Part shown: piece after piece, positions 6,288-64,000 of the stretch
Position numbering within the stretch: the stretch's first letter is position 1
Layout of the letters: every line of letters begins with the position of its first letter
Assembly: GCF_035084215.1 (NCBI RefSeq)
Contig: NC_090340.1
Location: 14,942,001 to 15,006,000 of the forward strand
Direction: 5' to 3'
Origin: Heptranchias perlo
Lineage: Eukaryota
Length of the DNA stretch: 64,000 nt
The notes under the pieces: model-generated
The model's database searches: none
Seen by the model: the letters and a program-made list of their open reading frames with translations, nothing else
What the model was told of the DNA's origin: nothing
Translations under genes and position numbers: made by a program

Positions 6288-8502
6288 TTTTTTTTTTTTT
6301 ATTCGTTCACGGGATGTGGGCGTCGCTGGCAAGGCCGGCATTTATTGCCCATCCCTAATTGCCCTCGAGAAGGTGGTGGTGAGCCGCCTTCTTGAACCGC
6401 TGCAGTCCCTGTGGTGACGGTTCTCCCACAGTGCTGTTAGGAAGGGAGTTCCAGGATTTTGACCCAGCGACAATGAAGGAACGGCAATATATTTCCAAGT
6501 CGGGATGGTGTGTGACTTGGAGGGGAAGGTGCAGGTGGTGTTGTTCCCATGCGCCTGCTGCCCTTGTCCTTCTAGGTGGTAGAGGTCTGTCGAAGAAGCC
6601 TTGGCGAGTTGCTGCAGTGCATCCTGTGGATGGTGCACACTGAAGCCACAGTGCGCCGGTGGTGAAGGGAGTGAATGTTTAGGGTGGTGGATGGGGTGCC
6701 AATCAAGCGGGCTGCTTTATCTTGGATGGTGTCGAGCTTCTTGAGTGTTGTTGGAGCTGCACTCATCCAGGCAAGTGGAGAGTATTCCATCACACTCCTG
6801 ACTTGTGCCTTGTAGATGGTGGAAAGGCTTTGGGGAGTCAGGAGGTCAGTCACTCGCCGCAGAATACCCAGCCTCTGACCTGCTCTTGTAGCCACAGTAT
6901 TTATATGGCTGGTCCAGTTAAGTTTCTGGTCAATGGTGACCCCCAGGATGTTGATGGTGGGGGATTCGGCGATGGTAATGCCGTTGAATGTCAAGGGGAG
7001 GTGGTTAGACTCTCGCTTGTTGGAGATGGTCATTTCCTGGCACTTATCTGGCGCGAATGTTACTTGCCACTTATCAGCCCAAGCCTGGATGTTGTCCAGG
7101 TCTTGCTGCATGCAGGCTCGGACTGCTTCATTATCTGAGGGGTTGCGAATGGAACTGAACACTGTGCAGTCATCAGCGAACATCCCCATTTCTGACCTTA
7201 TGATGGAGGGAAGGTCATTGATGAAGCAGCTGAAGATGGTTGGGCCTAGGACACTGCCCTGAGGAACTCCTGCAGCAATGTCCTGGGTCTGAGATGATTG
7301 GCCTCCAACAACCACTACCATCTTCCTTTGTGCTAGGTATGACTCCAGCCACTGGAGAGTTTTCCCCCCGATTCCCATTGACTTCAATTTTACTAGGGCT
7401 CCTTGGTGCCACACTCGGTCAAATGCTGCCTTGATGTCAAGGGCAGTCACTCTCACCTCACCTCTGGAATTCAGCTCTTTTGTCCATGTTTGGACCAAGG
7501 CTGTAATGAGGTCTGGAGCCGAGTGGTCCTGGCGGAACCCAAACTGAGCATCGGTGAGCAGGTTATTGGTGAGTAAGTGCCGCTTGATAGCACTGTCGAC
7601 GACACCTTCCATCACTTTGCTGATGATTGAGAGTAGACTGATGGGGCGGTAATTGGCCGGATTGGATTTGTCCTGCTTTTTGTGGACAGGACATACCTGG
7701 GCAATTTTCCACATTGTCGGGTGGATGCCAGTGTTGTAGCTGTACTGGAACAGCTTGGCTAGAGGCGCAGCTAGTTCTGGAGCACAAGTCTTCAGCACTA
7801 CAGCTGGGATGTTGTCAGGGCCCATAGCCTTTGCTGTATCCAGTGCACTCAGCCGTTTCTTGATATCACGTGGAGTGAATCGAATTGGCCGAAGACTGGC
7901 TTCCGTGATGGTGGGGATATCGGGAGGAGGCTGAGATGGATTATCCACTCGGCACTTCTGGCTGAAGATGGTTGCAAACGCTTCAGCCTTGTCTTTTGCA
8001 CTCACGTGCTGGACTCCGCCATCATTGAGAATGGGGATGTTTGCAGAGCCTCCTCCTCCCGTTAGTTGTTTAATTGTCCACCACCATTCACGACTGGATG
8101 TGGCAGGACTGCAGAGCTTTGATCTGATCCGTTGGTTGTGGAATCGCTTAGCTCTGTCTATAGCATGTTGCTTCCATTGTTTAGCATGCATGTCGTCCTG
8201 AGTTGTAGCTTCACCAGGTTGGCACCTCATTTTTAGGTACGCCTGGTGCTGCTCCTGGCATGCTCTTCTACACTCCTCATTGAACCAGGGTTGATCCCCT
8301 GGCTTGTTGGTAATGGTAGAGTGAGGAATATGCCGGGCCATGAGGTTACAGATTGTGCTGGAATACAATTCTGCTGCTGCTGATGGCCCACAGCGCCTCA
8401 TGGATGCCGAGTTTTGAGCTGCTCGATCTGTTCTGAATCTATCCCATTTAGCACGGTTGTAGTGCCACACAACACGTTGGATGGTGTCCTCAGTGCGAAG
8501 AC
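6288..8502 (-). mobile_element. Young 5'-truncated non-LTR retrotransposon (CR1/L2/Jockey-group LINE; clade not resolved) with an open RT ORF
   Basis: ORF 6572-8578 contains [32 protein letters not shown] and FADD. The polyA tail reads as polyT at 6288-6300. The first ~25 aa of the ORF come from flanking DNA, and a ~16-nt deletion near the C-terminus is seen relative to the copy at 55.6 kb. Confidence 0.92.
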
Positions 8503-48885: not shown

Positions 48886-50492
48886 CATTAACCTGCGCCC
48901 AATCATTGCGATGCAGGCAGCACATGATATTTGTGCTGCCCAGTTATTTAATTGATTCTTGCCAACAGCCAGCCCTAGTTGCTCTGTTGAGTGGCTGCTC
49001 ACCAACAGGGGGACCCAGATATCGCGTGAGTGGCTCGCATCACGTCAAGGCAGCCTGCACCTCTTAAAGGCAGCCTGCACCTCTTGCAAAATATATGATA
49101 CAGGTCTGCACGGTGTCTGAACGGAGAACGCAGATACCGGTCCCATACCTATGTTTACAAGCTGTTGAGTTATGTTGAAACATTGAATAAAGGTTGCATA
49201 GTACTAAATCCCACATCCTCCAATCTACATGGCAGACCTCACCAATTTGCCGATCTGAGTTTGTATCAGGTCTGTATGAGAACATGCCCCTACGTCCTCT
49301 GCTGATGCACTAGAGGCCTGGTTCAAGAGGTGGACAGATGAAGGGGCATCATATATCCGCGTTTCGGGGGGGGGGGGGGGGTGGGGGTGGTGCGTGGCAA
49401 GAGGCCCTCTGGAGATATGCTCAAAAAGCAGTGGGAGTCAGTCGGAGACAAAATCAATGGCAGACCTATAGCACCATGCACATGGATGCAGTGCAGGACG
49501 AAGTTCAATCCTTTGACACGAATGGTCAAGGTGATTGAGGTCAAATGTCAAGTAGCATCTCCTACCAATTGCACCACTAGCCGCATCAACTGCTCCATGC
49601 ACTTCACCCCCCCCCCCCCATCACCCACCTACCAACAAACACTTTCAATCAGTACTCAACTCTTCCAATCAGGTGCTTCCTCTCACCCTCACACATTACC
49701 ACTATTGCAAGCCACACACTCACAACTCACAGGCCACAGGCAGGCAGCTGTTGAACCATGAAAGGCACATCACCCATATATCATGCAAGACACTCACTGA
49801 CAAGCATCCCACTTTCTTGCAGGAGAAGGTGGTGCATGACAGGTGGCAGCAAGTGGCAGTGGCTCCAGGGAACACAAACCTGCTGTCCTGTCTCAGGATG
49901 CCAGCATTTCTGCCCGTGCCCTTGCTGTTGCCTGTCAGCTAGCCAGCCCACTCTCTGTAGAGTATTGTAACTTTATTATCGGAACATAGGAAGTATGCTA
50001 TTTAGCCCCTCGAGCCTCTTCCAATATTCAATGCGATAGAGGTTGATCTGTGACCTAACTCCATACATCCTCCTTAGCCCCATATTCTTTAATACCTTCA
50101 GTTAACAAAAATCTATCAATCTTAGCTTTAAAATTAACAATTGAATGAGCATCAACTGCCATTTGCAGAAGAGCGTTCCAAACTTCTACCACCCTTCCTG
50201 TGTAGAAGCATTTACTAACTTCACCCCTGCAAGTCTTGGCTCTAATTTTTAGTCTACGCCCCATGTTCCAAGTGTTCAAGTATAGGAGACCACCAAAAAA
50301 AGTGCACATGCATCAGCAGCCAGAAGCAATAATACTTTACATGCTGCCTGGGTTCAGGCCGCGCAAACGCTTTCACCAAGGTAACGTCAAGTGCACGTCA
50401 TGCTAGCACGTGGATTCCGGAAGACATTTTGGGTCCTTCAGAGTCCCTGTCGCTCCTGCACAACCAGTACTATGTGGTCCGTTTTATAGCCC
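48886..50492 (+). mobile_element. Second copy of the non-autonomous Harbinger-derived element (Myb remnant + CR1 3' fragment)
   Basis: RPSGDMLKKQWESVGDKINGRPIAPCTWMQCRTKFNPLTRMVK|gtgatt, then ttgcag|EKVVH. Ends gttttatagccc and is colinear with 26400-28093. Confidence 0.72.
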
Positions 50493-51419
50493 TATATTCG
50501 GTTGATCCTTAGGAGGTTGGCAAAACTGTTTCTGCGAACATTTAACTTATTGGAGATTAGTAAGGTGACAATATTGTGAGTTCCAAGATCCAGTTTGTTG
50601 GGTGAATCCATTGATCAGCACGCTGGCTTTCCAGTCTGTGAGAGGAATGGGGGCAGACGGAGCATCTAAAATGGGCAATGTGCCGTGAATATGGCGGGGC
50701 AGGCGTGTACAGATTTACAGCATGTTTTAAAATTATATTTGGAATTTGTTGCGAAGCTTTCGCCATCAGACATCAATTTTAAGTTGAATCCAGGAGCGGG
50801 TTGTATAGCAATGATTATATTTACATTAAGCCACCAGCAAAATACTAATCTACAAGTCTACCGGGACGGAGAGAGCCAAGATGTGCTCCCATTGACATTC
50901 CGAGTTGGATACTTTATCAATAAGTATTCACAGCCACGATTAATTTGCCATGCATGTTTTGGTCTGTATCCTTGCATCTATGTATATATCTGCGCATTTT
51001 CTTTTCAACCGTCTTGTGCATAATCATAGACAGTGTATTCCTTAAGGGGAATGCAAACATGTCGACGCTTCAGCACTGTCTTATCTCCCTTCAGTGTTGT
51101 AACCGGAAATACCTCTCCACTTACTATTGTTGCCTAGCTTCCCCTTGTTATAATGCAGAACTGCTGGTTGGAGGCAGTGTGGTAGCAGGAATTCCGAATG
51201 CAAGTGCCTCTCCTGTGACTTCACGAATGGGGGTGGCTTGCCTCTGCTCAGTGTCCCGATGTGGTTGAAGCGAGATTGCAAGGAGGCACATTGGAAATTC
51301 TTTGCAAAATCTGTCCCTTAATCACCTCCAAACTGCAGTTCTATTGTGTAAAACATTATGATTGGAATAACCTGAATGAGTAATATTCCTCACAAAATTT
51401 TTACAATTATGGAGAAATT

Positions 51420-52320
51420 GAAAAAAGATAGGTGAGAAAGTAAACTGTCAGGAGGATGCAAAGAGTCTACAAAGGAACATGGACACCTAAGGTGAGTGGG
51501 CAAGTAAGTGGCAGTTGGAGTATAATTTGGGAAAATGTGAGGTTATTCACTTTGATAGGAAAAATAGAAAAATTGAATATTTTTCAACGGTGAGAAAGGA
51601 TTAAATGTTGGTGCTCAGAGAGATTTGGGTGTCCTTGTACACGAAACACAAAAAAAAGTTAACATGCAGGCACAGCAAGCAATTTGGAAAGGAAGTGGTA
51701 TGTTTTGCCTATCTTTTCTAAAAGTCAAGTACCCTGGAATATTTAGTTCCCAACCTTGGTCACCCTGCAACCACGTCTCAGTAATGGCTACTCGATCAAA
51801 CCCATTGATCTCTATTTGTGCCATTAATTCATCTAGCTTGTTATGAATGCTTTATGCATTCAGATGCGGCACCTTTAAGTTAAACATTTTAATTTTCCCG
51901 CTGATGTCAATAATATCTTATTATCTTTGTTAAACTCTCTGTCCCTTCCTGACGCACTCTGCTTGTTTGTACTCAAATCGCTACTCTGCTCGACAGCCTT
52001 GACTTTTCTTTCTGGACTTATAACATTAAAATTACCCTTACCTGACCCCCACCACCCTTTATACGTTTATAGCCCTATCTACCACCCTATTTATTCAATT
52101 CGCTCGGGCACTGGTCCCAGCACAGTTTAAGTGGAACCTGTTCCAACGGAACAGCTCCCTTCTTCCCCAGTACTGGGGGCAGTGCCCAATGAATTGAAAA
52201 CCCTACTTCACACACCACTCTTTCAGCCACGTATTTAACCCTCTAATCTGTGTGTCCCTATGCCAATTTACTGATGGCTCAGGTAGTAATCCTGAGATTA
52301 TTATCTTTGAGGTTCTGCGC
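51420..52320. mobile_element. CR1 fragments: RT piece (+, 51420-51690) and endonuclease N-terminus/ORF1 piece (-, 51700-52320)
   Basis: VAITETWL and IIISGLLPEP...LNTWLKEWC on the minus strand. Confidence 0.8.
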
Positions 52321-52369
52321 CCAGATTCGGGGGTTATCGAATATAACTCCCGTAGTTTCTTACAGCAGA

Positions 52370-53220
52370 TGTCATGTTTAAGCTGTGAGATCTGTCCGAT
52401 ACCTACTAATGCCCTATTTTTATTGTCGATAATGTGTAGATTACTCGTCACTGTCTATCTGTATGTATCAACCGTGGAAAAACTAGGCGCGTCATCTTTC
52501 CCCAGTGTTCAATCATTGAATTCTTATTGGAATATGTAGCGCAGATATTTATCAGAAATGATGTAATGGGTCTGTTTGAAAATTGCGATTAAAGTTGAAT
52601 AATTTAAAGGATTGGGCTCAATAATAACACAAGGTATACCACAGGTGTAATTGAACAGAGGCCTTAGCCATGAGTGATATTGGTGAGGTTTGCGTAGATG
52701 ACGTGTGTAACATTAAAAAGACAGGTTAATGGCTTTCTAATGGTGCTGCTACAATAAAATAGTTCGAAGATAAATCTAAATGATGTTTGGTATCTCCCAA
52801 TGCTACTCAGTAATCAGATTTTGTTCCATTCTCTGTTCCGCAACTGCACCAACCGCGCTGAAGATTCTCTCCAGGACATCTGTATCTCTGACTTGTGTGT
52901 GAAACGGCTGAGGTCTATCCGAGAAATTCCACCCTCCCTCGGTATGAAAATGGCGTAGTAACTGCGATAGGAATACAAAACATTCAATGGCAGATAACTG
53001 AAGTGCTGTATGACGTTTCCTGCTCTTTGGAAGAGACGCAGCCTGTGCCGAGCGGTGCCAGTTACACCTGTTTGGTATCTCACATGCCGCTCGAGACTCC
53101 ACCTGTGGTCATCTACACGGTTACCAATTCTAACACAGGTACGAGGCCAACAGTCCAAGAAGGAGAGCCAGCTACTGTTAAATTCTTAAACAGATATTTC
53201 ATAAAGTTCGCTCATATTAA
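52370..53220 (+). pseudogene. Pseudogene paralog of the receptor: distal V-C1 intron homolog and C1 exon (52844-53138)
   Basis: Colinear with 43220-44040. Acceptor mutated (ttccgcaa), 2-nt deletion before the first Cys, W->R in the C strand. LEETQPVPSGASYTCLVSH and the donor are retained. Confidence 0.9.
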
Positions 53221-54297
53221 TAATAAGACCATAAGGCCACAAGAGATTGGAGCAGGAGTAGGCCATTCGGTTCCTCAAGCCTGCTCCGCCATTTAATGAT
53301 ATCATGGCTGATCTGATTTTTACCTCAACTCCACTTTCCCGCCCTTTCCCCATATCCTTCGACTGCCTTGCTAATCAAAAATTTGTCTAACTCAGCATTG
53401 AATACATTCAATGACTCAGCCTCCACAACTTTTTGGGGTAAAGAATTTCAAAAATTCACGATCCTCTGGGAGAAGAAATTCCCCCTCATTTCCGTCTTAA
53501 ACAGGCGACTCCTTATTCTGAGACTATTCCCCCTAGTTTTAGATTCCCCCAAGAGGGGTAACATCCTTTCAGTATCTACCTATCGAGTCCCCTCAGAATC
53601 TTATATGTTTCAATAAGATCTCCTCTCATTCTTCTAAACTCCAAAGAGTACAGACCCAGCCTGTTCAATCTTTCCTCATCAGACAACCCTTCCATACCCA
53701 GAATCAACCTAGTGTACCTTCTCTGAATTGCCTCCAATGCAAGTATGTCCTTCCTAAAATAAGGGCACCAGGACTGTATGCAGTACTGCAGGTATGGTCT
53801 CACCAGCACCCTGTATAGTTGTAGCATGACATCCCTGCTTTTATGCTCCATCCCCCTAGAAATAAAGACCAATATTCCGTTTGCCTTCCAGATAACCTGC
53901 TGTACCTGTATGTTGACTTTTTGTTTTCATGTACGAGGACACCCAGATCCCTCTGTACCAAAGCATTTTGTGGTATTTCTGCATTCAAATAATATTTTGT
54001 TTTTTTAAATTTTCCTCCCATAGTCGATGACTTCACATTTTCGCACATTATATTCCATCTGCCAAATTTTCGACCATTCGCTTCACCTGTCAATATCCCT
54101 TTGCAAACAGTTTGTGTCCTCACCACAACTTGCTTTTCAACCTATCCTTGTATCATCAGCAAATTTGGCTACAAGGCACTCTGTTACTTCATCCAATCCA
54201 TTGATATATATCGTAAATAGTTAAGGCCCCAGCACTGATCCCTGCGGCACTCCAATAGTTACAGATTGTCATTTGAAAATGAACCTTTTATCCCGAC

Positions 54298-55043
54298 TGT
54301 TGGCCGGAGGTCACCGGTTACGGTTACTGGCTTAGTACACAGAGGAGAAGAGTCAATTTTCTCTTAATTCTCAATTCGCTTTATTAACGTTGTTAGATCA
54401 TGTACATACCACTTATACATCTGGTTAGATACAGGCATGCAGTTTACAGCAGGTTATACAGTTTTAAACTCAAACTAGGATTTAAACGCACACCCACTAG
54501 GTTTCTCTGACTAACATTCCCTGAGAGGTCACAGAATAGAAAGGATATTTTATTACCCGGAAAGGAGAGCTGACGCTGGCCAGGCATTCCGTTCTCTTTC
54601 TCTTGACGTAGTCTCTATGTACCTGGCGTAGTCTCTACATCCCTGACGTAGGTTCTCCCACTTTCGCGATGGTTAGTCTCCGGAGTCTCGCACACAAACT
54701 GGCACCAAGCCTGCAATTCTTCAGTCTTATTCCTAAGTCTGTCTTTTCGAATGATGCTGTCTTCTCCTGTTGGCTCAGATTTGCTGGAGTGGTCGGTGTC
54801 ATCCCCTGATTGGCTCTGTTCCAAGAGATTAGGTAGCATCACCTCATTACTCCTTTTCTAAACAAGGACTGGTGTCTCATCACAGCTCCTTTGTGCTTAG
54901 AATCGTAACTAATTCAAACCGGTTCCGGCCAGCTCAGACCAGTGACTGAACTTCAGGTCACTTCAGTTCAAAAGTTAGTCTCTTTGCCTGGGTGTCAGCA
55001 ATTCGAAATAAACTCAGTAGTTTTCTGCAGCCCCTGGCCAACA
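54298..55043 (-). repeat. 3' LTR (746 bp)
   Basis: Direct repeat of 62376-63122, roughly 9 in 10 bases identical by eye. Confidence 0.95.
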
Positions 55044-55057
55044 TCTCCCCCCTTTTG
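55044..55057 (-). other. Polypurine tract
   Basis: A purine-only run (AAAAGG...GGAGA) on the minus strand abuts the 3' LTR. Confidence 0.85.
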
Positions 55058-55304
55058 ATCCAAATATGCTTATCTTAGGATCATTACTCTCCCTTTCTGT
55101 GTACCACTCCTGAGGTTGTCATTGTCTCCCAATGGGCACGTTACATCTGCGATAGTATATGTTCATAGAAAAAATATAAAAGGTTATTGGAAAAATATAA
55201 ATGGTTATAGAAAAAATATTTAAAAAACATATAAAATACACTTCACACAGTGTCCTTATATTGATAATCGCTTCATCTGTTTCATTATAGCACCAACACT
55301 CAAT

Positions 55305-57518
55305 TATTGCAAAATTTCATTTTTCCACGTTCTAAGCTGATATACATTGAATATTTTATTTATTCGTTCACGGGATGTGGGCGTCGCCGGCGAGGCCAGC
55401 ATTTATTGCCCATCCCTAATTGCCCTTGAGAAGCTGGTGGTGAGCCGCCTTCTTGAACCGCTGCAGTCCGTGTGGTGACGGTTCTCCCCCAGTGCTGTTC
55501 GGAAGGGAGTTCCAGAATTTTGACCCAGCGACAATGAAGGAACAGCGATATATTTCCAAGTCGGGATGGTGTGTGACTTGGAGGGGAACGTGCAGGTGGT
55601 GTTGTTCCCATGTGCCTGCTGCTCTTTTCCTTCTAGATGATAGAGGTCGCGGGTTTGGCAGGTGCTGTCGAAGAAGCCTTGGCGAGTTGCTGCAGTGCAT
55701 TCTGTGGATGGTACACACTGTAGCCACAGTTCGCCGGTGGTGAAAGGAGTGAATGTTTAGGGTGGTGGATGGGGTGCCAATCAAGCGGGCTGCTTTATCT
55801 TGGATGGTGTCGAGCTTCTTGAGTGTTGTTGGAGCTACACTCATCCAAGCAAGTGGAGAGTGTTCCATCACACTCCTGACTTGTGCCTTGGAGATGGTTG
55901 AAAGGCTTTGGGGAGTCAGGAGGTGAGTCACTCGCCGCAGAATACCCAGCCTCTGACCTGCTGTCGTTGCCACAGTATTTATATGGCTGGTCCAGTTAAG
56001 TTTCTGGTCAATGGTGACCCCCAGGATGTTGATGGTGCGGGATTCGGCGATGGTAATGCCGTTGAATGTCAAGGGGAGGTGGTTAGACTCTCTCTTGTTG
56101 GAGATAGTCATTGCCTGGCACTTATCTGGCGCGAATGTTACTTGCCACTTATTAGCCCAAGCCTGGATGTTGTCCAGGTCTTGCTGCATGCGGGCTCGGA
56201 CTGCTTCATTATTTGAGGGGTTGCGAATGGAACTGAACAATGTGCAGTCATCAGCGAACATTTCCATTTCTGACCTTGTGATGGAGGGAAGGTCATTGAT
56301 GAAGCAGCTGAAGATGGTTGGGCCTCGGACACTGCCCTGACGAACTCAATGTCCTCAATGTCCCAGCAGTGTCCTGGGGCTGAGATGATTGGCCTCCAAC
56401 AACCACTACCATCTTCCTTTGTGCTAGGTATGACTCCAGCCATTGGAGAGTTTTCCCCCTGATTCCCATTGACTTCAATTTTACTTGGGCTCCTTGGTGC
56501 CACACACAGTCAAACGCTGCCTTGATGTCAAGGGCAGTCACTCTCACCTCACCTCTGGAATTCAGCTCTTTCGTCCATGTTTGGACCATGTTTGGACCAT
56601 TGAATATGACAAGTGTTAACGCACATAAAATCGCAACTGCAGCAGCATGTGATAAAATCCTGACCCATGGATGTATTTGAACATTAGATTCCCAATGCCA
56701 AAACTTATCCCAGAACCCGGGGTCCCGTAGCAGTTCATCTGCTTTATCAGCATGAGTTTTAATTATTTTAGTTTGTTTCGTCCATTGATGAATTATCTCT
56801 TTGGCTTCCTCCGCTATTTGCGTCCAATCTGCAGTCAGGTGTGGAATGGGTGGTAGTTCGGGAGGAACATATTTCCGCAGATCTTGGTCTATATCTTTAC
56901 GTTGGACTGTGAGGTTTTCGTTTATTACCATCCTCTTTATTGGCTTAGGCAGAACTTGTCCACCGACAACCAGGTCTGCGGTCACATTGTGTCCTTCCAG
57001 AGGGCACTGTTTCCATCCTTTATTATAGTTCATAGCCGCTGTGGCTATGTAATACGTTTGTCCCACAAGGGAGTATTGTCACTACCCCAGTCAATATTTA
57101 CATCGGTGTGGTCCCAGTGGACCACAATTTTACCTCGACCGTCGCTCCCCGATTGTCGCTCCATAAATGGACCCACAAATTGATTGATGAATTTTCCCTC
57201 TGGGATTACCGACTATGTCACCTCTAGAACTATGTTACATGAAAACTGTACTGCCACTCCCTCCGGTATACCCAAAGTCTTTCCCACGCACGCTAACCCA
57301 TCCACTCCCGTATAATACAAATTTAAATCCTCTCTTTTCCCTTTGTTGTTTCGGACTGTCTTATTCTGCAGAGTAAAGTTGTCCCTGGTCTCGGGATATC
57401 CCTCCTTCATCGACACTGCTTCAGGCACGTTCATTCGGCGTGACGGCTCTGAGGCAGTTTCAACCGCAGTTCTGATGATGGTCAATCCGATAGCAACAAA
57501 ATGCATTATCCCCTTCAT
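55305..57518 (-). pseudogene. env: env-like glycoprotein gene, internally deleted and LINE-interrupted
   Basis: Splice acceptor ttgtttattacag| at 57531 just before the ATG (57518). Signal-like MKGIMHFVAIGLTII, heptad-like segment, Trp-rich FWDKFWHW, TM ILSHAAAVAILCALTLVIF, and tail NVYQLRTWKNEILQ after the LINE. Confidence 0.7.
55355..56597 (-). mobile_element. 5'-truncated LINE (family of 6288-8502) inserted at the end of the env TM segment
   Basis: 10-bp TSD CATTGAATAT (55345-55354 and 56598-56607) and an FADD-containing ORF at 55416-56267. Confidence 0.92.
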
Positions 57519-57579
57519 TCTAGGCTGGACCTGTAATAAACAAGTGTAATTTCTGCTCTTATTTACTGTTTCTTTTAAG

Positions 57580-60295
57580 TACTATCATAAGTCCAGTCTC
57601 TCCATATACTGAGCCAGACCGTCCATATCCTGTTCCCAATTTGTTTCAGATTCTGACCGTCCATTTCTTCTAATCCACTTATTCCCTCTTTTTGTTTTAT
57701 GTTCCTTTCGTTTTTTTCCTGGATTCGCTTCTGCATGGGAACGGACAGTATCAAATTTGTTTTCAATCACCTCCTCATCGGCCTGTAGCTGGTCCTGTTC
57801 TTGATCTCCCTGACCTTCAGAATTAGGTTTTTTAATTCTCCGTCTTTCTTTTGCTCCTCCGTTAAATCCATTTCTTTGACCTGCTTCTCTTTCTGGCCCC
57901 CGATTTCCCCAACCGGTGGCTGCCATTCCTGTCCACGTACAGCACCTCGTTTGGCTAGTTCATCAGCTTTACTGTTCCCTTTGGGGGAGAGTTTTGAATG
58001 AGCTTTCACTTTTGTGACCCCATATCCTTACCCCTGTGCTTCTTCAAAGATGTACCGTAATAGCGGGGCTGATGGAAGGGGCCTTCCATCCACTGAGACA
58101 AATCCCCTCACTTCCCATCGGGGCAAATGTTCTGTGAGGCTATTACAAACATACATGCTATCAGAATATATGACTGATCTGGGCGGAAAATTTCCGGGTG
58201 ACCAACCACATATGCGACGGCTGCTAGTTCTGCTATCTGCGCACTCATCGTGTTAGGTAATTTCAGAGCCGCACTAAAGCTTTCCTGTCCGTGGTCATAC
58301 TCCATGTGTTTCCCACAGCCAGTTCTCCTTTCCCCATCCTGTACTGATGAAGAGCCATCCTCAAAAATGTAAAAATAGGGTTCTTCCTTTCCTGTTTCCT
58401 TTGTCTTTCTGCTTTCAGGCCCCGTCTTACCCCCACCCTTTTGTTTTGATACAAATGGGCCCTTGGGCTCATTTGCTATCATTAATTGACACTCATGTTT
58501 TTCTCCCTGATAAACTAAGTTGTCTGCTGACATAGTAGTGGTTTTTACCCCCTTTACAGTTATATTTCTCCCTTGCAGCAACAATGTCCATCTAGCGATT
58601 CTATTTTGGCTAACTGAACCATCCTTAATCCTTCCATCTAACAGTAGCTGTACTGGGGTGTGTTCTGTTAATACTGTAAGTGGGTTTAGTCCCACTATAT
58701 AGGTAAAATGCTGCACTGCCCAAAAGACAGCTAGCAAGTGCCTTTCGCATAATGTATACCCCTGCTCTACTGGTGAGAGCATACGTGAGGCGTACGCTAC
58801 TGGTCGTAATTTTCCGTGTGTCTCCTGTAATAGAACTGCCGAGAGGGTGGTGTCTGTGGTAGCCACCTCCAATGAAAATGGCTCCGTTGGATTTGGGGGT
58901 TTTAGAGCAGGCGCAGCAGCTTGTACTTGCTTTAGATCAGTCATGGCCTGGGTGTGTTTTGTTTTCCACTCCCAGGCCACATTCTTTTTTAATAATTCCA
59001 TCAGCGGGCCGCCTTTGTGGCAAATCCATCAATATGGTCCCTGCAATATCCCACCAACCCCAAGAAGGGCCTTAACCCTTTAACATCCCGCGGCACAGGG
59101 ATTCTGCCAACCGTCTCTACCCTTCGCTTTTCAATGTCCCTTTGTTCCGGCGTCCGAATCATTCCCATGTAAGTAACTTTTTGTTTCATGGTCTTCGCTT
59201 CTTTAGGGTTAATCTTTAATCCCAAGTCATGTAACTACTGCAGTAATTGACTTAGCAGTTGATAATGTTTCTTCTTGGTTTCAGTTTGTAGGAGGCCTCG
59301 AGAATCCTTTTAACCCTTCCCTCAGCCATTGGTGAAATATGGACGGGGAATTGTGAAACCCCTGCGGCAGGGCAGTCCATGTACATTGCTGTCCTTGGAA
59401 AGTAAATGAGAATTTATATTGACATTCCTTCTCCAGTGGAATAGTCCAAAAACCGTTACTTATGTCCAAAACCGTAAACCACTGTGCATCCTCATTTTGT
59501 CGAACTACTGTCTCTGGGCTAGTTGCTACAGTAGGAGCTGTTAGCTGGTGACTTTATTTAATTCTCTGTAGTCTATCGTTAGTCGCCAGCTACCGTCGGG
59601 TTTCCTCACTGGCAAAATAGGTGAGTTATTAGTAGAAGCTATTGGTCTTAATATCCCTTGCTGCAGCAGACTCTGTATCACCTTCTCTATCTCTTCTTCT
59701 GCTTGCTTTGGGAAACCATACTGCTTCTGTGGTTTGGGGTCTGGACCTTGTACACACACTCCCGGTCATTTTCCCACAATCATGTTTATGTCGGGCAATT
59801 ACTATTGAGTTTTGTACAATAATTTGTTGTACTTCACGATAGTTACTCATTTCTCCTGGTTCTATCCACATTTCCCCGATCGCGCATATACTATCCTGAT
59901 ATTCCCCCATCGGGACGAATGTGTGATTCATACTGCCCATGCCCAAAGGCATTTGCCAAATCATACAATTAACAGGGTCGAAGCAAAATCCCGCTTTGGC
60001 CAAAAAGCCACTCCCTAATATATGTTCTTGTTCTCTAGGTAATTTAATAAGGACCACTGAATGCTCTATTACTATGTCTCCCACTCACTTGTGAATGCCC
60101 TGTGAATCCGCTTCGAATAATTTTGTTTTGAATTTTCCAATCTTTGTCATTGATCTGAGTGGTGTTAACGGTGGTTCGGGATCCCCCTGTGTCCCAAAGG
60201 AATGTAAGAGGGCGGCCTCCGACCCTACCATTCACTAGGGGTCTCCCCGTGTCATCCAACTGCAGGTCACACACCCATAACGGAGAGGGCTGAGA
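57580..60295 (-). pseudogene. pol: pro-pol remnant: protease, RT (YxDD deleted), degenerate RNase H/tether, second RNase H, integrase largely deleted
   Basis: FLWDTGGSRT; NSPILPVRKPDGSWRLTIDYRELN; FTFQGQQCTWTALPQGFHNSP; RPVAYASRMLS..CERHLLA; IFEDGSS..SAQIAELAAV..YSDS..KAHS..GNSKADELAK. Confidence 0.9.
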
Positions 60296-60298
60296 CCG

Positions 60299-62064
60299 TC
60301 ACTGCAGTTCGGGGTACAACCCGGAACTTGGTGATATTGCTATCGTATCACACTGAGGACTTGGTCTATTCAGCCCTTCCACGGGTAGGCTCTGATTTCT
60401 TCCCCGACCTGCATTCTCTCGTCTCGGGTTTGGGCAGTCTCTTGCGAAGTGTCCCTCTTGGCCACAGTTATAGCATTTGGACACCTCGCCTTGAGTTCTC
60501 CCCGTTCCCGAGGAGTTTCCTCTTCCTCTGCCTCTACCTCTTCCCACTGTCTGATAAGCTGGAGGGGGTCCCCCTGAGTAGGTCCCCTCCCTTCATTTCT
60601 CCAGGTTATCGTCTGATCTTTAACAGGCATTGCTCTGTCCCCGGATGCCTTGGATCGTTTTGGTATTTCCCTTTCCCATACTCTAACCATCTTCCTACTT
60701 ATCCAGGGTTCCGTATGTGTGTCATCAGCGGATTCAAACTGATCTAGTGCCCTCCTCGACTCCTCAGTGCCATGCGACACTAGTGTTCTCAGCCATCGGT
60801 TCCTAACCTCCTGCTGTAAATTGTTCCTGTCTAAGTATGTGCCATAGACCACCTGAAACACCGCCCAAATGCGGGCTGAAAATACAGTGGGGTGTTCACC
60901 TTTTCTTTGATAGCATTTCATTAGCGCCTCCACTGGATCCCCTCTGTTATCGCCCATGACAGATAATACCTGGTCCTTTAAGGCCTCATTCGTGCTTCTA
61001 CCAAGTTTTTGTTCCTCCGGGATGGCGGAGTGTATATGTGGGTGTAGGCACATTAGGATTAATTTTCTTTCCTCAGCATCGTCTAAGCCGTGTATCGCTC
61101 TCTGTTGCCTGACTGCTAGGAATAACTCCCTAGGATCATCCCCAGGCGCACACATTCCAATATCTTTTGCAATAACCCTCAGTTCTTGTACCCCAAGTGG
61201 GGTGGAATATGTCATATCCTGGCCATCTTCCCCCATCTGTGCTCTAGTGGTTACAAGGGGGGCCATTGGGGCAGACGGTTTTTTTGGCTCTGGAATATGC
61301 TGGCGGTGGGTCCCCTCGTGGAGGTTCCCCATCAGTGCTGCTGTATCTATCCGCCTCGTCTGCTAAATCGTCCCAATCTACATCCCCTTGACCACTTTCT
61401 TCACCTCTTCCGGGTGTGAAAGCGCACAATATGCTCCTCTGTGCGGCTAGCTGATCTTGCAGCCTCCCTATCAGTTTCTGAAACTTTGTGTGATCGCCGG
61501 TACTACTCCTCTTCTCCTGAGCTGATCTGTGAATCACATTCATGCAGTTTTTAAATCACTACATTGTTGTTTCCATCTCTCCACCTCAGCTTTAGCTGCT
61601 TGGGCTTCTCCCTCTCTCTTACTCTTTTCATTCGTCAATTTTTCGCACTGTAACTGATATTGGTTCATGTGCATCAAATCTGCACTTCTCTGTTCATGTA
61701 GATCAGTTACCTTCTTACTAAGGCGGTCTATCTCCTAACGGAATTTTTTATTCTCTTCCCCTAATCCGTCTCGGATTTTCTGTTGTTCCTCCCTCTCTCT
61801 CCTAGCCTGTTGTCGGCATTCTATCCATTCGTCAAGTAAACATCCGATTGCTACGGACTTCTGTATCTTTTAAAATTTCCTATCTGACATCTTTGTTTGC
61901 GCAATTCTCCAAAGGACCTCCCCAACAGGCGTTCCCTTGTCTCCAATGTGACCCGCATACTCCCCGTATTGCAGCCACTTCCCTATTACGTATTTTTGGA
62001 GGAGTCCCTTCCAGTCAAAACAGTCCAAGACCCCAGGGCTTGGAGATTTCCCTTTATTCGTCAT
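60299..62064 (-). pseudogene. gag: gag remnant with coiled-coil region and one CCHC knuckle
   Basis: CYNCGQEGHFARDC, capsid-like ORF 60370-61332, and an E/K/Q/R-rich helix at ~61430-61830. Frameshifts and stops are present. Confidence 0.85.
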
Positions 62065-62116
62065 CTTATGTTATTAGCTATGAATTAACCCAAACTCCTG
62101 TCCTCTGTGTACTTTG

Positions 62117-62375
62117 CCAATTCGGTTCGGCTCGAGTCTCCCGCTGACTCAACTGAGAGAATTATCCTCAGAGCCCCCTTGCCAAATTCGGTTCAACTCG
62201 AGTCTCCCGCTGACTCCACGGAGAGATTTATCCTCAGAGCCGACCCAAATTCGGTTCGACTCGAGTCTCCCGCTGACTCAATGGAGAGATTTATGCTCAT
62301 AGCCCACCCAAATTCGGTTTGACTCGAGTCTCCCGCTGACGCAACCGAGGGATTTATATCGAGTCTACCCAAATC
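62117..62375 (-). repeat. Four tandem 61-65-bp units at the primer-binding-site position
   Basis: Units start at 62117, 62182, 62245 and 62308, with a partial fifth at 62369. Invariant core ctcgagtctcccgctgac. Confidence 0.92.
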
Positions 62376-63122
62376 TGTTGACCGGAGGTCACTGGTTACG
62401 GTTACTGGCTTAGTACACAGAGGAGAAGATTCAATTCTCTCTTTATTCTCAATTCACTTTATTAACGTTATTAGATCATGTACATACAGCTTATATGTCT
62501 GGTTAGATCTAGGCATGCAGTTTACAGCAGGTTATACAGTTTTATACTCATACTAGGATTTAAACGCACACCCACTACGTTTCTCTGACGAACACTCCCT
62601 GAGTGGTCACAGAGTAGAAAGGATATTATATTACCCGGAAAGGAGAGCTGACGCTGGCCAGGCGTTCCGTTCTCTCTCTCTCGACGTGGTCTCTACGTCC
62701 CTGACATAGCCTCTACGTCCCAGACGTCGGGTCTCCCACTTTCGCGATGGTTAGTCAACGGAGTTTCGCGCACAAACTGGCACCAAGCCTGCAATTCTTC
62801 AATCTTATTTCCAAGTCTCTCTTTTCAAATGATGCTGTCTTCTCCTGTTGGCTCAGATTTGCTGGAGTGGTCGGTGTCATCCCCTGATTGGCTCTGTTCC
62901 AAGGGGTTAGGTAGTATTAACTCATTACTCCTTTTCTAAATAAGGACTGGTGTCTCATCACAGCTCTTTTGTCCCTTAGAAGCGCAAATAATTCAAACCG
63001 GTTCTGGCCAGCTCAGACCAGTGACTGAACTCCCTGTCATTTCAGTTCAAAAGTTAGTCTCTTTGCCTGGGTGTCAGCAATTCGAAATAAACTCAGTAGT
63101 TTTCTGCAGCACCTGGCCAACA
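62376..63122 (-). repeat. 5' LTR (747 bp)
   Basis: Minus-strand TATAAAA (~62540-62546) and AATAAA (~62458-62463), with TG...CA ends. Confidence 0.95.
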
Positions 63123-63689
63123 CCGACTCTTTATTTTCTGTTAGTTAGCCAATCCTCTATCCTTGCCAGTAAATTACACCCAACACCATGAGCTCTTATC
63201 TTTTGCAGTAATCATTATGTGGCACCTTATCGAATGCCTTTTGGAAATCCAAATATACTGCATCCATTGGTTCCCCTTCCTCAAAGAACTCTAATAAATT
63301 TGTCAGACATGATTTCCCCTTCATAAAACCATGTGGACTCTCTTGATTGTTTACGAGTCTCCAAATGTCCTGCTACTACTTCCTTAATAATGGATTCTAG
63401 CATTTTCCCAATGACAGATGTTAGGCGAACTGGTCTATAGTTACTTGCTTTCTGTCTCACTCCCTTCTTGAATAGGGCTGTTACGTTTGCGGTTTTCCAA
63501 TCCACTGGGACGTTTCCAGAATCAATGAATTTTGGAAGATTACAACCAATGCATCCACTATCTCTGTAGCCACTTCCTTTAAGACCCTCGGATGCAAGCC
63601 ATCAGGTCCAGGAGAATTGTTAGCCTTTAGACCCATTAGTTTACCTGGTTTTTTTTCTCTAGTGATAATGACAGTGATAGTAACAATCA

Positions 63690-64000
63690 TTAAGATAGTT
63701 CACGGAAAACTCCTGGAAAATATCAACAAAAACATAAAATTCATATTTTAATGTGAAATATAATTGAGAACCGATAGTAAAACCTGAAGTTATATCATCC
63801 GCTGCACAAATATTCTCAGCCAAACCTTATTTGCCTTCAAATTCCTGTATTTGATGTAAAAGCAAGAGGTTTATCTTTGTTATCTGATTATATTCCATAT
63901 TGTGCTTAATATTAATCACTTTATTTTTTGTTCCCATCATCAAATGGTTTTATTCGTTATTATTATCTAGCTTTCCTACAACACAACGATTACCAAGAGC
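63690..64000 (+). pseudogene. Continuation of the pseudogene's C1-TM intron homolog
   Basis: aagatagttcacggaaaactcctggaaaatatcaac matches 44048-44085 and stays colinear to ~44365. Confidence 0.85.

Follow-up and report, generated by a model that had tools for sequence, protein, structure and literature searches.

A dead provirus of a multi-copy SnRV-like retrovirus family with a predicted F-type envelope in Heptranchias perlo

The provirus in the window and its decay

Examination of the window (the whole stretch of 64,000 nucleotides of Heptranchias perlo contig NC_090340.1 analysed here) revealed a provirus at 54298..63122, on the minus strand as are all of its parts given below. The 5' LTR of 747 nt (62376..63122) pairs with a 3' LTR of 746 nt (54298..55043) at 92% identity (686 matches in 747 columns, K2P distance 0.086); the LTRs have TG...CA termini, and the target-site duplication CCGAC stands on both flanks (54293..54297, repeated at 63123-63127). 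Next to the 5' LTR lie a primer-binding site (62358..62375), damaged in this copy and of tRNA-Asn type in sister copies, and a leader with four direct repeat units of 63-66 nt in tandem (62116..62370). Sister copies carry fewer of these units, which are possibly packaging or dimerisation hairpins. The provirus is itself enclosed by an older LINE copy, with LINE-type frames at window 53500-54297 and 63123-63640.

The gag region (60299..62064) is broken by stops and frameshifts. It has a charged, heptad-like N-terminus, coiled-coil-like by a crude score only, and a single CCHC near 60430-60480 (zf-CCHC, E 2e-10), and it terminates at a TGA, with CGG next to it, in the same frame as pol. The pol remnant (57585..60298), delimited by Pfam and by comparison with sister copies, retains a protease domain (PR, detected by Pfam), reverse transcriptase (RT), tether, RNase H and the C-terminal tail of the integrase. 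The RT motif TWTALPQGFHNSP lies at 59344..59382 (RVT_1 match, E 5e-15), and the tether, a degenerate gypsy-type RNase H, at 58573..58968 (PF17919, RT_RNaseH_2, E 1.7e-24; RT_RNaseH, E 6e-24). The second RNase H (57935..58375) is split over frames: DGSS, AELAA, SDS and GNSKAD are distributed over frameshifted frames and yield weak RNase_H pieces, the domain being matched by PF00075 at E 1e-17 in a sister copy. The 5' part of env and its C-terminal ectodomain to the transmembrane segment (TM) occupy 56598..57581, in a frame that begins at 57581 downward, past the pol stop. This env is interrupted by a 1.24-kb 3' fragment of a LINE (RT region, 55355..56597), flanked by a 10-nt duplication and 93% identical to a LINE copy at window 6293-7497, beyond which lies a remnant of the cytoplasmic tail (55256..55354). 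About 200 nt separate the end of env from the polypurine tract (55044..55059), which adjoins the 3' LTR. All the provirus features listed in an earlier note on this DNA are present; the env-like ORF is indeed a separate frame, and the splice acceptor ascribed to it is a candidate AG at 57531-57532 with a short pyrimidine run before it, recognised from the sequence only.

Losses in this copy were called against sister copies, with the sister C28a as reference for the YxDD motif, PR, primer-binding site and integrase. Compared with C28a, 32 nt are missing at the YxDD motif, 29 nt from PR and 9 nt from the primer-binding site, as is the integrase core (about 1.2 kb, at about 57827); relative to sister copies, the window copy has also lost about 1.25 kb of env near 57080, furin site and fusion peptide included, and has acquired many frameshifts. 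Because of these frameshifts, the loss of YxDD, the deletion of the integrase core and of the env middle, and the LINE insertion, the window copy is dead and unable to encode working proteins. The provirus and both its flanks (window 50409-64000) are repeated about 300 kb away, at G000:C18:14692500-14708500 (G000 being the host genome), with 99.4-99.9% identity. Since the flanks are duplicated too at that identity, the second copy appears to be a recent segmental duplication or an uncollapsed assembly haplotype, not a new insertion. The window copy would have decayed, received the LINE, and later been duplicated together with its flanks. The LTR divergence of 0.086 corresponds to about 19 My with the mammalian rate used in PMC7947760 or to about 190 My with the rate assumed in PMC4422223, the age depending on the rate chosen.

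The family in the host genome

At least 40 loci retain the middle part of the family env (87 candidates scored, 40 with this part), and in their internal regions sister copies share 90-95% identity with the window copy. Among six other copies, the distance between the two LTRs is 0.017-0.030 for five and 0.099 for one. Target-site duplications of 4 nt were found in all six sister copies checked for them, a tRNA-Asn-type primer site is visible in five of six, and the three host loci matching this primer site are all tRNA-Asn-GTT, which suggests that reverse transcription is primed by tRNA-Asn. The genome also holds 176 exact matches to the tRNA-Asn 3' end, many of them spaced along C23 and others on several small contigs; these represent a large tRNA gene array or a tRNA-derived repeat.

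Complete integrase and RNase H domains are present in sister copies (Pfam). In all nine sister copies that cover the junction, a TGA separates gag from pol in frame, the next base being C in eight. As the same frame continues from gag into pol through the TGA, Gag-Pol would arise when ribosomes read through this UGA, which stands in a C-rich context, and Env would be translated from a spliced RNA. The interval from LTR to gag contains no extra ORF, hence no separate smc gene, in the window copy or in ten fetched copies, the latter chosen by score and not at random.

An open env frame of 776-777 codons occurs in 3 of the 20 env loci examined. In eight of the ten fetched copies (L015, L019, L021, L023, L025, L027, L029, L031), env is about 0.93 kb shorter than full length; one such copy, once translated, lacks the furin site and fusion peptide and still has an open frame. 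Such copies point to a subfamily with deleted env that multiplied without an entry protein of its own; part of the family's expansion in the germ line may have come from them.

Polymerase, envelope and rival readings

Lokiretroviruses are defined by their RT (Wang and Han, PMC7947760). Placement of the family was examined in a tree of 40 RT rows and a tree of 29 RT+tether rows, with a gypsy outgroup. The trees held only three natural lokiretrovirus rows, taken from metagenome contig copies labelled by near-identity to published rows, and no Odin, ERV-L or fish foamy-like rows; the reference for snakehead retrovirus (SnRV; 10,688 nt, in agreement with PMC12193657) has an RT matching the published row, and the foamy, gamma, epsilon and class II reference genomes were labelled by motif. 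In the RT tree the lokiretroviruses form a clade (100/99) that is sister to the canonical retroviruses, and the latter include the family (100/99); the RT+tether tree shows the same split. The family clusters with frog and coelacanth Pols in one clade (87/92 for RT, 93/95 for RT+tether) within a deep class III grade, and in the RT+tether tree it lies below the 94/98 branch of SnRV, foamy, gamma and epsilon retroviruses. A clade uniting it with SnRV is absent from the best trees, with AU p values of 0.44 (RT) and 0.16 (RT+tether) that leave it unrejected. By identity, the 90-aa RT piece of the window copy is nearest to SnRV (61%), followed by epsilon (46-48%), foamy (42-46%) and lokiretroviruses (39%).

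In the full-length Env of 777 aa, which a sister copy encodes, a signal-like stretch at the N-terminus is followed by RKKR at residues 320-323, then by a glycine/alanine-rich peptide and a heptad, and by a TM near 729-750. The protein would be cleaved at RKKR, the fusion peptide and heptad acting behind the cut, and its N-terminal extension of about 240 residues may be a receptor-binding module. A motif and Pfam search found neither a CX6CC motif nor a TLV_coat-type TM, in line with an envelope that is not gamma-type. An AlphaFold model from 38 rows (mean pLDDT 62, pTM 0.44) reaches confident values for most of residues 242-637 and has low confidence for residues 1-241. Compared with the PDB by Foldseek, it matched paramyxovirus or pneumovirus F in 43 of the 43 matches listed (best E 3.1e-10), with low TM-scores of 0.20-0.27 by query length. 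Against predicted viral structures it matched, among others, baculovirus F, lispivirus G, feline foamy Env and the Envs of the walleye epsilonretroviruses WEHV-1 (E 8.1e-10) and WDSV (E 9.6e-10).

Sequence profiles gave a concordant but uneven picture. The family Env profile matched natural lokiretrovirus Env (E 1.4e-7 and 4.3e-7 among 283 ORFs; 22-24 bits against at most 3.7 bits for shuffles) and, more weakly, foamy Env (best E 2e-5), which had been the top match of an earlier, rougher profile. With the HMMER profile SnRV Env scored no better than shuffles; by hhalign it aligned in register over 195 columns (81%, E 1.2e-5). PF00523 had no match to the family Env, foamy Pfam families had none to Gag or Env, and a profile search of PDB sequences with the family Env found nothing. 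Of the nine homologues that were named, among 42 matches, eight come from five shark species (best identity 77%) and one from a frog. The best matches of an alpha-globin exon of the host were two fish haemoglobin entries, of a ray and a shark; two further globin exons were uninformative. A cartilaginous-fish host, as had been supposed, is most likely, and a shark is likely. The family Env is predicted to work like an F-type class Ib fusogen and, judged by these alignments, is homologous to lokiretrovirus, foamy and SnRV Env. The F-like fold anticipated by the earlier note is thus supported by the predicted structure of an intact family Env. It is not specific to lokiretroviruses, because the Envs of foamy viruses and, by prediction, of walleye epsilonretroviruses and SnRV also match.

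Taken together, we consider it very probable that the provirus in the window is a dead member of an endogenous retrovirus family present in many copies, with a Pol among the deep-branching canonical (class III, SnRV-like) retroviruses, a likely shark host and an Env predicted to be a paramyxovirus-F-type fusogen. The identification originally put forward, a chondrichthyan lokiretrovirus, draws on the dual RNase H, the F-like Env with sequence homology to lokiretrovirus Env, the UGA-C junction, and a tether and integrase closer to lokiretroviruses than to SnRV. We regard it as highly improbable. The RT of the window copy and of sister copies carries LPQG, against xPFG in all 20 lokiretrovirus RT rows examined (19 of 19 named supplement rows plus Loki-Xla, 20 of the 24 in PMC7947760); a clade of the family with lokiretroviruses is rejected by the AU test for RT (p 0.011) and for RT+tether (p 1.2e-5); and a natural lokiretrovirus RT used as query gives the family at most 157 bits among the matches listed, against 245 bits for a relic described below. 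On its RT motif and trees, the window provirus is therefore not a lokiretrovirus. The characters that had pointed there are real and of wider distribution. The RT motif is retroviral, and the RT does not fall among Ty3/gypsy elements (Metaviridae), yet its LPQG argues against lokiretroviruses; two RNase H domains are present, not one, and such a pair is common to all retroviruses according to PMC7947760; and the coil of the single-CCHC Gag is not the smc feature of lokiretroviruses, described there as a separate gene in some genomes.

Slightly less remote, but still improbable in our judgement, is a recombinant in which a canonical class III RT was joined to a lokiretrovirus-derived integrase and env. 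The tether scores 105-110 bits against lokiretroviruses and 66 bits against SnRV, and the integrase 221-227 against 131 bits; the best Env-profile matches are those of lokiretroviruses, and exchange between Pol and Env is described as common in anamniote ERVs (10.1101/2021.11.23.469661). Against this, the frog and coelacanth relatives outscore lokiretroviruses in both tether and integrase, so that any exchange would predate the whole clade. Adding the tether to the RT strengthens the exclusion from lokiretroviruses, and the Env matches foamy, SnRV and epsilon Envs too, for which shared ancestry is the simpler explanation. The integrase tree, in which CGIN1 was unsampled, has no resolution at its base. 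We infer that the lokiretrovirus-like tether, integrase and TGA-C are retained ancestral states, combined with fast change in SnRV. A divergent foamy-like ERV would account for the F-like Env, a type known from foamy viruses (PMC11468914), for the top match of the rougher profile, and for an AU p of 0.062 for the family with foamy viruses on RT, fish foamy-like ERVs being unsampled. The family nevertheless falls outside foamy viruses in all best trees, where foamy rows keep their own long branch (100/100); its RT identity is 33-39% to foamy viruses against 49% to SnRV, and the foamy Pfam families are without a match. A CCHC Gag and an in-frame gag-pol are likewise unlike foamy viruses, and we give this reading hardly any credence.

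The placement among canonical retroviruses bears on envelope evolution. In PMC9040795, canonical and lokiretrovirus Envs are described as without detectable similarity and independent acquisitions of Env are weighed, and in PMC11468914 orthoretrovirus Env is placed outside the F-type class. An Env that matches lokiretroviruses by profile and F by predicted fold, in a family with a canonical RT, favours an ancestral F-type Env. No statement of an F-type Env in SnRV-like or epsilon viruses was found in the portions available of the open-access literature (e.g. PMC9040795, PMC13524379, PMC12583693, PMC12440569, PMC12287698, PMC10435555, PMC11521997, 10.1101/2021.11.23.469661, 10.1101/2024.03.17.585361). 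Tentatively, and with rather less than even confidence, we propose that the family belongs to a canonical retrovirus lineage that was among the first to branch off, before SnRV and the foamy, gamma and epsilon retroviruses. It would keep an ancestral F-type Env, a little-decayed tether, a lokiretrovirus-like integrase and UGA-C read-through, all shared with lokiretroviruses; F-type Env would be ancestral to lokiretroviruses and canonical retroviruses, with gamma- and beta-type Envs as later replacements, and true lokiretroviruses would also have invaded a cartilaginous fish.

Known relatives and a separate lokiretrovirus relic

The closest known group is the SnRV clade, or clade Huo, including CmiERV lineage I (PMC4422223, PMC6001957, PMC12193657), the latter likened to the family by description. 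Lineage I of Callorhinchus milii (elephant shark) was reported in 2015 to cluster with SnRV (PMC4422223), the SnRV-related clade Huo to infect all major vertebrate lineages (PMC6001957), and most chondrichthyan ERV RTs to belong to clade III (PMC11089739); this branch had been recorded in cartilaginous fish before, and the window provirus is an unexceptional member of it. Among named viruses SnRV itself comes closest in RT (49% identity over 266 aa, 61% for the core piece); it shares with the family a stop codon that separates gag from pol in frame, a Gag combining a coiled coil with a single CCHC, a similar length of Pol before RT (190 aa, about 200 in the family) and an Env homologous from the furin site onward. 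It differs in its junction (TAG-G, against TGA-C in the family), its Env (about 1,130 aa, of which 136 form the tail, against 777 aa with a short tail), and in its tether and integrase (28% and 35% identity); the family has no room for accessory ORFs behind env. The family primer site is of tRNA-Asn type, whereas the primer of SnRV is tRNA-Arg. The closest Pol relatives, at 55-59% over RT, are the frog and coelacanth proteins annotated 'NYNRIN-like' (P0027, P0029, P0080) and the Logan protein P0001, the frog and coelacanth hosts differing from that of the window. In a protein model of Mustelus asterias (P0096), a transporter is joined to a stretch of RT with 64% identity to the family, probably because the gene model was wrongly assembled across a related ERV.

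With lokiretroviruses as described in PMC7947760 the family shares the tether plus second RNase H and an F-like Env with detectable homology, along with a fairly similar tether and integrase. The natural lokiretroviruses L060 and L061 have a TGA-CTA gag-pol junction, comparable to TGA-C in the family; this in-frame TGA-CTA is a likely read-through signal, of which no mention was found in the available text of PMC7947760. Apart from its RT, which lies outside the lokiretrovirus clade with LPQG in place of xPFG, and its lack of a separate smc gene, the family has a CCHC and a short PR region, whereas L061 has no CCHC and 637 aa before RT. Foamy viruses share the F-type (class Ib) Env, solved for them (PMC11468914) and predicted in the family, and walleye epsilonretroviruses (WDSV, WEHV-1) share it in predicted models only; the RTs of both stand on separate well-supported branches.

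A search of the host genome with a natural lokiretrovirus RT also recovered, on a chromosome other than that of the window, a lone, degraded fragment of lokiretrovirus-type RT on the minus strand at G000:C6:98784697-98785293 (L127:8156-8806). It matches at 56% and 245 bits, the other 149 matches listed (of 2,062 candidates) reaching at most 157 bits, and it carries the motif WNQCPFGYTNSP and two stops. In a tree without Odin it nests inside the lokiretroviruses (100/99), with two of their three rows (96/81), on a long branch. Neither gag, tether, integrase, env nor LTR was found within about 8 kb of it, and it is independent of the window provirus. A 2021 screen had recorded lokiretroviruses in none of six chondrichthyan genomes, and no statement of a lokiretrovirus in cartilaginous fish was found in the available parts of the open-access literature. 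The fragment is thus a candidate for the first such record, on the evidence of its RT, and would extend lokiretroviruses to a host class with no positive genome among the six of 2021. The earlier suggestion of lokiretroviruses in cartilaginous fish, which fails for the window provirus, gains support from this relic in its wider form. Contamination is argued against by the large contig (112 Mb) on which the relic sits, by the surrounding repeats, which are shared with other loci of the genome, and by diverged relatives of 65-78% identity on C5, C7 and C6, located by sequence match at C5:87752045-87752601 (78%) and at C7:26844442-26845020 and C7:26901643-26902139 (65%).
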